NCBI RefSeq assembly: GCF_004010195.1
Contig: NC_057731.1
Coordinates: 43,616,623 to 43,680,622, forward strand
Direction: 5' to 3'
From: Chiloscyllium plagiosum
Taxonomy: Eukaryota
DNA length: 64,000 nucleotides
Of this stretch, positions 34,201 to 36,821 are shown piece after piece. How positions within the stretch are numbered: the first letter of the stretch is position 1; each line of letters begins with the position of its first letter. The notes under the pieces were generated by a model. That model saw nothing but the letters and a program-made list of their open reading frames with translations. It did not search any database and had not been told where the DNA came from. Both the position numbers and the translations under genes were made by a program.

Positions 34201-36821
34201 ACCCTTCAGTCCAACTCATCCATGCCGACCAGATATCCTAAACTAATCTAGTCCCATTTGCCAGCACTTGGCCCATATCCATCTAAACTCTTCCTATTCA
34301 TATACACATCCAGATGCCTCTTAAGTGTTGTAATTGAACCAGCCTCCACTTCCTCTGGCAGCTCATTCCAAACAACACCACCCTCTTGTGTGAAACAAGT
34401 TGCGCCTTCAGTCCCTTTTAAATTTTTCCTATGCCCTCCAGTTCTGGACTCCCCCATCCCAGGGAAAGACCTTGTCCATTTACCCTATCCATGCCTCTCA
34501 TGATTTTATAAATCATTGTAAGGTCACCCCTCAACCTCCCAACACTCCAGGGAAAACAGCCCCAACTCTATTTAACCTCTCTCTATAGCTCAAATCCTCC
34601 AACCCTGGCAAACATCCTTATAAATCTTTTCTGAACCCTTTCAAGTTTCACAACATCTTTCCGATAGGAAGGAGACCAGAACTGCAATATTCCAAAAGTG
34701 ACCTAACTACAGCCGCAACATGACCTCCCAACTCCTGTACTTAATACTCTGACCAATAAAAGGAAAGCATACCAAACACCTTCTTCACTATCCAATCTAC
34801 CTGTGACTCCTGCTAAGACTTGCTTTCCCTAAAATGCAGCACCTCACATTTATCTGAATTAAACTCCATCTGCCGGTTCTCAGCCCATTGGCCCATCTGA
34901 TCAAGGTCCCGTTGTAATCTGAGGTAACCCTCTTCACTGTCCACTACACAACCCTTTCAAATTTCACAACACCCTTCTGAAGGGAAGACCAGAATTATAC
35001 AAAATGCTCCAACTCCTATACTCAATGCTCTGACCAATAAAGGAAAGCACACAGAATGCCTTCTTCACTATCCTAGCTACCTTGTCATTGTGGAAAAATG
35101 TTCATGGCGTAGAGAATAACATAATAATTTTAACAGAAGATTCTGGCTAGCAGAAAACAGTATTCATAAATTGTTTTTGTCTGATTGGTAGGATGTGACT
35201 GGAGTACTGCAGGGATCTGAGCTGCAACCTCAACCTTTTACAGTTTAAATCAATAATTAACATGAGCAGAATGAAGGTATGGTGACAAAATTTGCAAAAG
35301 GCAATAAGATAGGTAGGAAGATAAGGAAGTTGCAGACGGATATAGATAGGGCAAAATCTGCCCATGGGGTATAATGTGGAAAAAAAGTGACTTTGTTCAC
35401 TTCAACAGGAAGAACGAAAAAGCAGTTTATTATTTAAATGGAAAGCAAGGACACAATTTTGAATTGCAGAGGGATTTATTATTTTGCTGCACAAGTCACA
35501 AAAACATTTGTATGCAGATACAACACAATCAAGGCGGCAAATGGAGTGGTATTATTTATTATAAGGTGAATTGCACACAAGAATAAAGATGTTATATTTC
35601 AGTTTTACAGGGCATTAGTCAGACCTCATCTCAAATACTCTGTGCAGTATTGTTCACCTTATTTAACGAAGTTTTGTAAATGCATTGGAATTGGTTCAGA
35701 GGAGGTTTACTAGATTTATAACTGGAATGAGAATATATGGATAGTCTGGGCTTGCTTCCACTGGCATTCAGAGGAGGAAGGGGTGACTTGATTGAAGTGT
35801 ATAACATCCTGAATTGTCTTGAAAGGGTGAACACTGAAAATATGCTTCTTTTTGTAGCTTAATCCAGATCTAGGAGGTTGCCATTTCAGGAGAAATGAGG
35901 AAAATTCTTTCCTTTCAGAAGGTGGCCAGGGTGGGTCAATGAATATTTTTAAGACGGAGATGGATAGATTCATGTTAGGCAGGGAACTCCTTGGAGATGA
36001 TGAGATTTGGAATTTAAAATGCAAACAGACCAGTTATTTGATTGAATGATGGAGCAGATTCAAGGAACCAAATGGTCTATTTTTGCTCCTATTTCATATG
36101 GTGGTATACACATTACCCATCAAACACACCTACTGCAGCAAGAGCATGGGTAAAGCTCCATTTATACGGCCTGCACACTTCATGCTCTCTATAAGAAGGG
36201 AAGCAGTTTCTTAATTGTTGATGTTTTGAACATTTGTAACTGAAAGATTGGTCTGAATAAAGTTATCTAGAATTCAAAGTATTTACTGATTCAATGGCTT
36301 GGCCACAAGGCCACAAGGGCACATACCCAGGCATTTTCAAATAGCCAGATTCTGGATTAGTGGTGCTGGAAGAGCACAGCAGTTCAGGCAGCATCCAAGG
36401 AGCAGCGAAATCGACGTTTCGGGCAAAAGCCCTTCATTTATTCCTGATGAAGGGCTTTTGCCCGAAAGGTCGATTTCACTGCTCCTTGGATGCTGCCTGA
36501 ACTGCTGTGCTCTTCCAGCACCACTAATCCAGAATCTGGTTTCCAGCATCTGCAGTCATTGTTTTTACCCCATTTTCAAATAGCCAACACCTGAAGGCAA
36601 CATATGACAGACATCAGAAACAACCCGAGTTATTTGATCTTCATTTTGCCGCAAACAGCAAAATACTTCCTGTAATCTGGAATTTTGCTGTTAACTTCTA
36701 ACCACAACTGTGTGACACTTACCTGAAACAGGTTTTCATCTTCCACGCTCCTCTTCACCTTTTCCCTAGTGGGATTTCTCTGCACCCCTCCACGAGGGAA
36801 ATCCTCATCCATTGCAGCCAT
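1167..36821 (-). CDS. PDCD11: PDCD11 / RRP5 homolog (S1-domain rRNA biogenesis protein), 23 coding exons in window, 3' part lies beyond window start
   Basis: N-terminus [12 protein letters not shown] and repeated S1-like domains (e.g. [37 protein letters not shown]). All traced exons join in frame with GT-AG boundaries. Synteny with ATP5MK and TAF5. Confidence 0.96.
1830..1932 (-). CDS. PDCD11: PDCD11 coding exon 22 (KLSGD...TCYVSK)
   Basis: ccacag| acceptor, |gtacag donor, 103 nt, phase 2/0. Confidence 0.88.
2030..3525 (+). mobile_element. Decayed CR1 LINE (RT region to 3' end)
   Basis: Frameshifted CR1 ORF2 peptides ([27 protein letters not shown]). Confidence 0.8.
4405..4467 (-). CDS. 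PDCD11: PDCD11 coding exon 21 ([20 protein letters not shown])
   Basis: ttttag| acceptor, |gtaagt donor, 63 nt; resembles the RRP5 LPISHP motif. Confidence 0.9.
4529..4842 (-). mobile_element. HE1/V-SINE
   Basis: tRNA-like head, V-domain GGGTTTCCTCCGG, (TCTAA)n tail on the minus strand. Confidence 0.85.
4995..5278 (+). mobile_element. HE1/V-SINE (internally deleted)
   Basis: ggtggctcagtggttagc A-box, ggttcgatt B-box, tgtgtggagtttgca V-domain. Confidence 0.8.
5470..6170 (+). mobile_element. DeuSINE (SacSINE1/AmnSINE1-like), interrupted by another repeat at about 5700-6010
   Basis: Deu-domain-like gagggtcagc...gatgagatgttaaac and 3' tail ttggctg...ttcctacaatacag...tatagaaatg. Confidence 0.55.
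6477..6988 (-). CDS. PDCD11: PDCD11 coding exon 20 (LKGISQH...GGREVKSH)
   Basis: Within ORF 6473..7018; ttgcag| acceptor, |gtaggt donor, 512 nt. Confidence 0.92.
7085..7730. repeat. Tandem array of a ~70-bp satellite-like unit (catcaaacactcccaggacagg...gttagatacagagtaaagctccctctacact)
   Basis: About 7 degenerate units; related copies at 18140-18200, 33240-33380, 36115-36165, 45355-45520, 57160-57260. Confidence 0.8.
8033..8148 (-). CDS. PDCD11: PDCD11 coding exon 19 (VSLSPGQQ...NVKK)
   Basis: ttgtag| acceptor, |gtacag donor, 116 nt, phase 1/0. Confidence 0.88.
8590..9495 (+). mobile_element. CR1 LINE fragments
   Basis: aaatcatgcttgacaaat RT segment; ORF 9091..9495 resembles the CR1 ORF2 C-terminus. 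Confidence 0.75.
9548..9697 (-). CDS. PDCD11: PDCD11 coding exon 18
   Basis: Within ORF 9516..9713; tttcag| acceptor, |gtaagt donor, 150 nt, phase 1/1. Confidence 0.9.
10453..10672 (-). CDS. PDCD11: PDCD11 coding exon 17 (AMSDKFV...LMSSR)
   Basis: Within ORF 10442..10690; ctccag| acceptor, |gtaatg donor, 220 nt. Confidence 0.93.
11226..11321 (-). CDS. PDCD11: PDCD11 coding exon 16 ([10 protein letters not shown]...LAPKA)
   Basis: ctttag| acceptor, |gtgagt donor, 96 nt; S1 motif. Confidence 0.93.
11600..12830 (+). mobile_element. Decayed Penelope-like element with terminal repeat, interrupted by a CR1 3' end (11844-12020, minus)
   Basis: Similar to the Penelope fragment at 31.9-32.5 kb; ends in cagttCTGATGAaaggtca. 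Confidence 0.6.
13286..13506. mobile_element. Tc1/mariner (Tigger-like) MITE
   Basis: Imperfect terminal inverted repeats gtcgttctgctataa / ttacagcagaactgactgTA. Confidence 0.5.
13564..13638 (-). CDS. PDCD11: PDCD11 coding exon 15 (ILCRKAA...LELQ)
   Basis: U12-type branch point CCCTTAAC then gctcag| acceptor, |gtgagc donor, 75 nt. Confidence 0.88.
13639..14325 (-). other. PDCD11: U12-type (minor spliceosome) GT-AG intron of PDCD11
   Basis: Donor GTATCCTTT (14325-14317); branch site CCCTTAAC (13658-13651) about 13 nt before the AG; no long pyrimidine tract. Confidence 0.88.
14326..14520 (-). CDS. PDCD11: PDCD11 coding exon 14
   Basis: Within ORF 14311..14538; tttcag| acceptor, |gtatcc donor, 195 nt. 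Confidence 0.92.
14709..14881. mobile_element. Palindromic Penelope-derived mini-element (family C) with 12-bp TSD
   Basis: TSD tcatttaattct at 14697-14708 and 14882-14893; inverted arms; minus-strand CTGATGA-GGAGC/GCTCC core. Confidence 0.8.
14940..15073 (+). mobile_element. Family C mini-element, second copy
   Basis: cacCTGACGAaggagcggtgctctGAAAg followed by aaacctgttggactataac...catctccaaat. Confidence 0.75.
15233..15270 (+). ncRNA. Minimal type I hammerhead ribozyme motif (family B mini-element 15231-15370)
   Basis: agtt-CTGAGGA-a-gggt(aatcag)acct-GAAAC-GTT-aact: stem I agtt/aact, stem II, palindromic AACGTT stem III. Confidence 0.65.
15644..15763 (-). CDS. PDCD11: PDCD11 coding exon 13 ([10 protein letters not shown]...PTGK)
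   Basis: tcccag| acceptor, |gtattt donor, 120 nt. Confidence 0.9.
16150..16344. repeat. ~38-bp minisatellite abutting a PDCD11 donor site
   Basis: About 5 units of gaccgccctcagtctgactctacccagtc(g/t)c(c/t)cctgct. Confidence 0.8.
16345..16596 (-). CDS. PDCD11: PDCD11 coding exon 12
   Basis: Within ORF 16312..16647; tctcag| acceptor, |gtgaga donor, 252 nt; S1 motif. Confidence 0.94.
16833..16979 (-). CDS. PDCD11: PDCD11 coding exon 11
   Basis: tttcag| acceptor, |gtgagt donor, 147 nt. Confidence 0.93.
17819..17879 (-). CDS. PDCD11: PDCD11 coding exon 10
   Basis: ttttag| acceptor, |gtaagt donor, 61 nt, phase 2/0. Confidence 0.88.
18334..18458 (-). CDS. PDCD11: PDCD11 coding exon 9 (KSHLSS...ALVSLR)
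   Basis: ttgcag| acceptor, |gtgagt donor, 125 nt. Confidence 0.9.
19516..19722 (-). CDS. PDCD11: PDCD11 coding exon 8
   Basis: Within ORF 19468..19737; ttccag| acceptor, |gtgagt donor, 207 nt. Confidence 0.92.
20424..20531 (-). CDS. PDCD11: PDCD11 coding exon 7 (VDTCGL...RPGQQ)
   Basis: ttgcag| acceptor, |gttagt donor, 108 nt. Confidence 0.9.
20662..20813. other. Assembly gap
   Basis: Run of N flanked by AG-rich simple repeat. Confidence 1.
21541..21722 (-). CDS. PDCD11: PDCD11 coding exon 6
   Basis: acttag| acceptor, weak AAG|gtgcag donor, 182 nt; phase fits both neighbours. Confidence 0.87.
22198..22321 (-). CDS. PDCD11: PDCD11 coding exon 5 ([19 protein letters not shown]...)
   Basis: ttgcag| acceptor, |gtgagt donor, 124 nt. 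Confidence 0.93.
22881..25363 (-). mobile_element. Young 5'-truncated CR1 LINE (ORF2 RT)
   Basis: 370-aa ORF with [33 protein letters not shown]; short repeat tail at 22881-22900; possible TSD tgaaga. Confidence 0.95.
23305..23379 (+). mobile_element. 75-bp family A mini-element nested in CR1, 16-bp TSD
   Basis: ctcaagggtatacaag at 23289-23304 and 23380-23395. Confidence 0.88.
25410..26110 (+). mobile_element. Decayed CR1 3' fragment
   Basis: cagctggagtacgtgtccagt and atctggaatgcac CR1 tail motifs. Confidence 0.7.
26608..26769 (-). CDS. PDCD11: PDCD11 coding exon 4
   Basis: ccccag| acceptor, |gtgagt donor, 162 nt; contains LKLSINP. Confidence 0.92.
27315..27555. mobile_element. Palindromic family B mini-element
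   Basis: Inverted arms around cagttCTGcTGAagggtcactggacccGAAAc. Confidence 0.7.
28717..28881 (-). CDS. PDCD11: PDCD11 coding exon 3
   Basis: caccag| acceptor, |gtgagt donor, 165 nt; first S1 domain. Confidence 0.93.
29589..29779. mobile_element. Palindromic family A mini-element, ~13-bp imperfect TSD
   Basis: cttgatttttagt at 29576 and cttgattttaagt at 29780; inverted arms. Confidence 0.75.
31603..32570 (-). mobile_element. Penelope-like retroelement 3' fragment (GIY-YIG endonuclease) with hammerhead-bearing terminal repeat
   Basis: ORF 31881..32417 has [39 protein letters not shown] upstream; family A repeat at 31603-31730; N gap 31911-31922. Confidence 0.9.
32575..33020 (-). mobile_element. 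CR1 RT fragment
   Basis: [20 protein letters not shown]. Confidence 0.8.
33068..33205 (-). CDS. PDCD11: PDCD11 coding exon 2 (Lys-rich)
   Basis: ttccag| acceptor, |gtacgt donor, 138 nt. Confidence 0.85.
33395..36100 (+). mobile_element. Decayed CR1 LINE interrupted by an HE1 tail (33535-33620) and an opposite-strand CR1 3' end (34165-35080)
   Basis: [25 protein letters not shown] breaks at about 34163 and resumes at about 35085. Confidence 0.75.
36348..36570. mobile_element. Palindromic family A mini-element, 16-bp TSD
   Basis: cattttcaaatagcca at 36332-36347 and 36571-36586; ~90-bp near-perfect inverted arms; CTGATGA at 36444. Confidence 0.9.
36723..36821 (-). CDS. PDCD11: PDCD11 coding exon 1 (exon spans 36723-36830, including 9 nt of 5'UTR)
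   Basis: ATG at 36821; EDFPRGG motif; ctgcag| acceptor at 36831, |gtaagt donor. Confidence 0.93.

Follow-up and report, generated by a model that had tools for sequence, protein, structure and literature searches.

A head-to-head Penelope-like element stub in an intron of an RRP5-like shark gene, and where the arms of such stubs end relative to the hammerhead ribozyme

The insertion and its family

We analysed a window of 64,000 nt of Chiloscyllium plagiosum (bamboo shark) DNA (NCBI RefSeq assembly GCF_004010195.1, contig NC_057731.1, positions 43,616,623 to 43,680,622 of the forward strand), in which positions 36332-36586 hold a hairpin insertion belonging to a Penelope-like element (PLE). 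The insertion sits in the intron following exon 36723-36831, whose borders are matched exactly by contigs from three public runs and whose splice donor lies at 36722. An S1_RRP5 domain is encoded farther along the same gene and a TAF5-like gene is adjacent, from which we infer that the host gene is PDCD11/RRP5; a PDB search with the 33-aa peptide of the host exon gave no match. All feature coordinates are collected in Table 1.

An exact 16-bp direct repeat (36332-36347 and 36571-36586), the target site duplication (TSD), encloses 223 bp. Two inverted arms (36345-36437 and 36447-36539) are 98% complementary, with mismatches at 2 of 90 sites. A reading made from the letters alone (the sequence-only reading) had claimed a 223-bp element with two arms of about 90 bp and a 16-bp TSD, and all three were measured as claimed; for its distance of about 150 nt to the donor of the first coding exon, we measured 136 nt counting from the TSD and 152 nt counting from the element. 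Folding of the 223 bp enclosed by the TSDs gives -193.9 kcal/mol (z -27), a stability that 0 of 200 shuffles matched; transcripts of the element are predicted to form a double-stranded RNA (dsRNA) hairpin. Numbering element positions relative to the predicted hammerhead cut, with +1 at 36472, we found that the turn-around at 36437/36438 falls 6 nt before CUGAUGA (36444). It thus lies at the 5' boundary of the hammerhead, as had been proposed, yet 25-34 nt upstream of the predicted cut between 36471 and 36472. The arms end at -34 and -25 and both span the cut site. Neither arm contains an intact hammerhead core; at 36468 the focal copy carries G in place of the family's C, so that the ACGU palindrome of stem III is broken, and an Rfam scan of the 64-kb window at the gathering threshold returned 0 matches.

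The focal insertion is a stub of a PLE, consisting of an inverted pseudo-long terminal repeat (pLTR) and a pLTR with a 34-nt tail. Longer copies of the family extend upstream into a GIY-YIG coding region and reverse transcriptase (RT) fragments, and two of them (L183 and L186) scored above the Pfam cut-offs for RVT_1 (E 1.3e-7) and GIY-YIG (E 9.7e-5). L186, the copy with GIY-YIG, is joined without a break to the same tail; relative to the tail anchor, L186 and L169 are either contiguous or upstream. The top-scoring homolog of the RT fragment was a bamboo shark protein with 86% identity; the homologs are unnamed or uncharacterized proteins, many of the matches having both RT and GIY-YIG domains. 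The linker between RT and endonuclease (EN) is Cys-rich with a CxxxxCxxC motif and, judged by eye, Neptune/Nematis-like. No intact full-length copy was present among the family copies examined. In the 3.56-Gb genome a 43-mer from the tail region matches exactly at 7,468 places, and 384 exact matches of a 46-mer reaching past the tail run on into the start of the open reading frame (ORF), a partial-tandem layout. The features of an endonuclease-bearing (EN+) PLE were therefore found together: a hammerhead in the pLTR, a tail of 30-40 bp at one end, an inverted 5'-truncated copy and partial tandems. The available parts of PMC8557442, PMC3846280 and PMC8969392 describe PLEs with an inverted 5'-truncated copy, a tail of 30-40 bp on one side and a TSD, and the layout of the focal stub is thus already published. 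Taken by itself, the focal element is unremarkable, an intronic and decayed transposon stub.

A motif census showed that hammerhead stems I, II and III covary between three families, A, B and C. Just past the cut in family A, a hexamer at +6..+11 is hypervariable at constant length and marks at least 6 subfamilies; it may pair with -52..-44 as a distal stem I. Elsewhere, a family B stub at L329:1850-2200 lies in a tandem duplication that includes about 40 bp of flank, and the upstream flank of one PLE copy (L030) contains an integrase-like reading frame of an adjoining LTR (long terminal repeat)-type element.

Arm ends, start sites and duplications in two families

Copies of family A were picked solely by an exact tail anchor (among the matches listed, on contigs C1-C2 and mostly with one of four flanking dinucleotides), and 30 ribozyme-selected loci were excluded from this sample. 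From 226 copies, 5 that continued into the ORF were dropped, and the remaining 221 comprised 101 simple copies, 58 inverted ones, 15 showing an internal jump and 47 that N or the length of the reference had censored. The 100 copies of family B comprised 45 inverted, 32 simple, 10 jump and 13 censored (including 7 reference copies), these classes being assigned automatically and imperfectly, such that a few family B 'jumps' are inverted copies. Arm boundaries are uncertain by 1-3 nt. The position bins were set after viewing the family A data, and family B provides the independent replication. Hairpins make up about a quarter of the sampled copies in family A and nearly half in family B.

The sequence-only reading had asked where the breakpoints fall relative to the predicted cut, and in both families (221 A and 100 B copies) the distribution was strongly non-uniform and tied to the ribozyme region. 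Tail arms of family A ended at 0.2-0.4 per 100 nt in the background, 1.8 at +1..+9, 1.9 at -18..-27, 3.6 at -28..-38 and 0.3 at -39..-60, and the inverted arms had the same two peaks. Over background the rate rose 11-fold at -28..-38 in family A and 24-fold at -28..-41 in family B, with a sharp drop upstream; 29 of 45 inverted arms in family B stopped at -28..-41 and one extended past. The smaller peak at +1..+9 in family A comprised 39 ends, 28 from the 190 tail arms and 11 from the 47 inverted arms that were at risk, giving a rate ratio of 5.1 (p=1e-10). They are real junctions, since only 2-8 of the 20 upstream bases match the reference. Their centre, +6/+7, coincides with the base of a predicted stem, and no dependence on subfamily was evident. 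The peak was absent from the 100 copies of family B (rate ratio 0.9; A versus B p=0.003). As family B is independent of the choice of bins, it confirms the upstream zone but not the cut-site peak. Both arms ended within -18..-38 in 16 of the 58 inverted family A elements, so the design seen at the focal locus is the commonest type, not the rule. A splice acceptor was rejected as the origin of the edge: neither family has an AG there, and ends do not pile up at the AG near -46 in family A.

The opposite ends of the arms were confined as well. Among inverted copies, 45 of 58 in family A have a tail-less arm that starts at +58..+67, and in 42 of 45 in family B it starts 29-42 nt inside the tail end. 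With the anole Poseidon element in vitro, RT starts at two sites bounding the tail, and both target strands are cut and extended (available text of PMC11167929); the two fixed starts of the shark families match these two. Of the inverted copies, 49 of 58 in family A (median 14 bp) and 38 of 45 in family B (median 12 bp) have a TSD, compared with 45 of 101 and 7 of 32, respectively, of the simple ones; partner-shuffled flanks never exceeded 7 in 164 trials. The TSD length distribution, another check that had been suggested, is accordingly long and variable.

The two arms of an element also resemble each other. On 60 entries, one element being counted from both sides, arms disagreed at 28 of 372 subfamily-diagnostic sites (7.5%), compared with 40% in shuffled pairs and 31% in the lowest shuffle. 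Long arms were paired with long arms (6/6 versus 2/52, p=7e-7). The inverted arm reached more than 5 nt past the tail arm in 24 of the 60 entries, and the reverse held in 22. The exact 34-nt junction of the focal element occurs 23 times in the genome; in the 14 copies examined the tail lies on the right in 5 and on the left in 9, and at least 6 subfamilies are represented. The same junction with the tail on either side and in so many subfamilies indicates that it formed anew each time and that no master was copied. Consistently, 57 of 58 junction types in family A and 44 of 45 in family B are distinct.

Within the window, seven further loci (14709, 27315, 29589, 37905, 39488, 51033 and 61073) are likewise PLE stubs in head-to-head arrangement and belong to three or four families (Table 1). 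The sequence-only reading had described them as an inverted truncated copy plus a full copy; the head-to-head layout holds, but every arm is a stub. It had also spoken of inversions that repeatedly centre near the ribozyme; as we read the eight loci, the 5' boundary of the ribozyme is where both arms end in only 3, one arm in 4 and neither at 61073. TSDs within the 11-16 bp that it gave for several loci were recovered at 14709, 37905, 39488, 51033 and 61073, with a shorter repeat at 29589 and none above 6 bp at 27315.

Three other PLE copies lie in the window. A simple A-type stub at 43342-43460 runs from -28 to about +64 without the tail inside a 13-bp TSD, the inner start site having apparently been used alone. 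A simple young family A stub at 23289-23395 spans +25 to the tail end, has a 16-bp TSD and lies within an older LINE (long interspersed nuclear element)-like repeat. A longer A-type remnant at 31611-32555, on the minus strand, contains the Cys-rich linker and the start of the endonuclease. The TAF5-like exons (TFIID_NTD2) at 59211-62225, also on the minus strand, lie upstream of the RRP5-like gene, with a long Pro/Ala repeat N-terminally.

Table 1. Features of the focal insertion, its host exon and the other head-to-head stubs of the window (window positions; arm ends relative to the predicted cut)
Feature	Position	Strand	Remarks
TSD, left copy	36332..36347		16 bp; final 3 nt match the inverted arm too
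Inverted pLTR arm, tail-less	36348..36437	-	Element +65 to -25; lacks hammerhead C3-U4-G5
Direct pLTR arm	36438..36536	+	Element -34 to +65; overlaps the inverted arm by 1 nt at 36437
Minimal type I hammerhead core	36444..36471	+	CUGAUGA, stem II GGGC/GCCC, GAAA; cut predicted after 36471; motif layout following the available text of PMC4209133
Tail, on one arm only	36537..36570	+	34 nt
TSD, right copy	36571..36586		16 bp
Host exon of PDCD11/RRP5-like gene	36723..36831	-	Contains the start codon (36821); gene name inferred
Family B head-to-head stub	14697..14893		TSD 12 bp; arm ends about -38 and +17 (by eye)
Old family C head-to-head stub	27305..27548		Both arm ends near -32 (by eye); no flank repeat >6 bp
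Older A-type stub	29576..29788		Arm ends about -32 and +2 (by eye); exact flank repeat 9 bp
B-type stub	37894..38084		TSD 11 bp; arm ends about -32 and -28 (by eye)
Older A-type stub, tail on left	39474..39660		TSD 14 bp; arm ends about +43 and -31 (by eye)
C-type stub, tail on left	51018..51190		TSD 15 bp; one arm begins near -25 (by eye)
Family B stub	61062..61219		TSD 11 bp; arm ends about +1 and +15 (by eye)

How the palindrome may arise

We favour, at a probability of roughly 60%, a one-off stub insertion of an endonuclease-bearing PLE in which both ends of a staggered cut primed RT on the same element RNA. The GIY-YIG domain would cut the target with a stagger of about 14 nt; one target 3' end would prime at the tail end (+98) and the other about 34 nt further in (+64). 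Both complementary DNAs (cDNAs) would pass the uncut hammerhead before ending, as a rule, at -18 to -38, the likeliest reason being an RNA 5' end set by a transcription start in the pLTR, and the two would be joined head to head with a 0-4 nt overlap or short filler. A minority of family A arms would stop at +1..+9, as expected of a hammerhead-cut RNA. The arms of the focal element, ending at -34 and -25, cross the cut and were therefore copied from uncut RNA. A transcription start is the simplest reading of the edge, given its sharp upstream side, the joint limitation of both arms and the start position in D. virilis Penelope, where transcription begins inside the pLTR, upstream of the hammerhead (available text of PMC2377424 and PMC4209133). 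More tentatively, the shark PLE stubs might together be a genome-wide record of transposition RNA ends, one RNA being copied twice, once from each of two fixed starts, onto the two ends of the target, with most templates running off a start before the hammerhead and about 1/6 of family A arms running off a hammerhead-cut end; we regard this extension as possible but doubtful.

Several observations weigh against the double priming of a single RNA and its run-off at a transcription start. The test for a cap-templated extra G missed significance in both families (A 18/57 versus 44/175, p=0.39; B 21/58 versus 18/74, p=0.18). Among copies that continue into the ORF, a set of 67 that are mostly short chimeras, 10 of 20 passed the edge compared with 80 of 121 tail-ended copies, counts that are compatible with either a start or a stall. 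In polyadenylated single-cell reads neither starts nor ends piled up. For family A, structure prediction places a hairpin over -37..-19, so a stall is conceivable there. One element (L080) is a clear exception to arm concordance, its arms coming from two subfamilies and differing at 7 of 8 diagnostic sites, and the concordance of the others could come from gene conversion within the hairpin. Both strands of the family sequence were represented in the single-cell reads, none of which was specific to the hairpin; an A>G excess in them was rejected as editing, being accounted for by strand composition and family polymorphism. An allele with the empty site did not appear among the listed sequence pieces, none of which spanned the insertion site.

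The hairpin just mentioned, together with a stop zone that keeps a constant place relative to CUGAUGA in two families, would also suit double priming in which RT stalls at the 5' half of the hammerhead, on structure or a bound protein, and never runs off the RNA 5' end. We consider this unlikely, because four family B folds lacked a matching hairpin, the sharp edge faces upstream, and a stall set by position alone leaves the pairing of long arms with long arms unexplained.

The sequence-only reading had suggested that RT switches template, or primes the second strand, at a place defined by the RNA end which hammerhead cleavage leaves. The family A junctions at +1..+9 and the covariation of stems I-III speak for such a model. 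So do three tail-less arms that begin at the cut site in elements with 14-15 bp TSDs: L445 and L449 (both at about positions 1400-1650) and L226 are head-to-head elements whose tail-less arm starts at -1..+1, as would be seen if copying began at the 3' end of an upstream cleavage product. For the focal element and the main class, however, the model fails, since the focal arms run 25-34 nt across the cut and the main peak lies across it too. Family B has no +1..+9 peak, and the centre of the A peak at +6/+7 on the predicted stem base leaves room for trimming or stalling. Genome-wide, priming at the cleaved 3' end was not established: of 18 matches at -1, 4 had unrelated sequence downstream, compared with 1 of 4 at +3 and 1 of 1 at -3, that is, 4 clean cases versus 1 and 1 at control positions. 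Moreover, insertion in vitro was unchanged by ribozyme mutants in the available portion of PMC11167929. As a general explanation, cleaved ends are thus quite improbable. What survives of the idea that cleaved ends place the breakpoints near the ribozyme is the minor A peak, which fits cleaved templates and is suggestive of hammerhead cleavage in vivo in family A; the main peaks (-28..-38 and -28..-41) do not fit it.

Arm concordance and short junction overlaps would likewise follow from fold-back, a self-priming route of the kind proposed in PMC3846280 (in the part available), in which a single cDNA or RNA molecule folds back and the first arm serves as template for the inverted one. We find this equally hard to credit: in the 24 entries noted above the inverted arm holds sequence with no counterpart in the tail arm, an identical junction occurs with the tail on either side, and the same end peaks appear in non-inverted copies.

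A miniature inverted-repeat transposable element (MITE) or other fixed hairpin master copied as a unit could account for the 23 exact junctions but is scarcely conceivable given their split orientation and mixed subfamilies, the almost wholly distinct junction types, the long and variable TSDs and the asymmetric ends. The view of the sequence-only reading that these are retroelement products and not MITEs was borne out, with neither fixed terminal inverted repeats nor uniform copies, and with a junction that recurs independently.

Relation to known systems

The formation of inverted pLTRs and the role of the hammerhead are named as open questions in the available parts of PMC8557442 and PMC11167929. 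Thousands of stubs yield position-level predictions (a second start near +64, an edge at -37 or -41 and a family-specific peak at +1..+9) that are testable in the existing in vitro system, and such a population signal on mechanism is modestly useful. If the record-of-RNA-ends reading were true, it would provide in vivo evidence that the minimal hammerhead of metazoan PLEs cleaves and that its products serve as templates. In addition, the stubs may place much perfect dsRNA in shark pre-mRNAs.

In the available passages on EN+ PLE insertions (Pen2a_Av, PMC3846280; PMC8557442; D. virilis Penelope, PMC2377424), head-to-head pLTRs, a tail on one arm, a TSD and a pLTR hammerhead are all shared with the shark stubs. 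The shark unit differs in being an ORF-less stub, and its TSD medians of 14 and 12 bp exceed the 8-10 bp of the rotifer examples. Poseidon PAc of the green anole, studied in vitro (PMC11167929, as far as available), shares two RT starts bounding the tail and the cutting and extension of both strands, whereas the shark family has a Cys-rich RT-EN linker (by eye) and a long ORF that begins after the tail. Inversion junctions are not discussed in that text. The minimal type I hammerheads of metazoan PLEs in the accessible text of PMC4209133 share the core, the base between 9 and 10.1 and the palindromic stem III. Close-range hammerhead pairs on opposite strands are noted there too, and the copy in our window is decayed on both arms. 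Non-LTR retrozymes (10.64898/2026.07.22.740005, in the part available) are likewise non-coding and have a type I hammerhead related to that of PLE pLTRs; they form head-to-tail tandems in which each hammerhead is complete, whereas the focal element is a single head-to-head unit in which neither core is intact.

No published map of breakpoints against the hammerhead, and no report of twin priming in PLEs, was found in the literature searched, which included few subscription papers and no supplements. In LINE-1 twin priming, both target ends prime on one RNA and leave an inverted 5' segment inside the TSD; the two segments there come from different parts of the RNA and their positions vary. The arms of the shark stubs, in contrast, cover the same stretch from two fixed starts, and the outcome is a palindrome.

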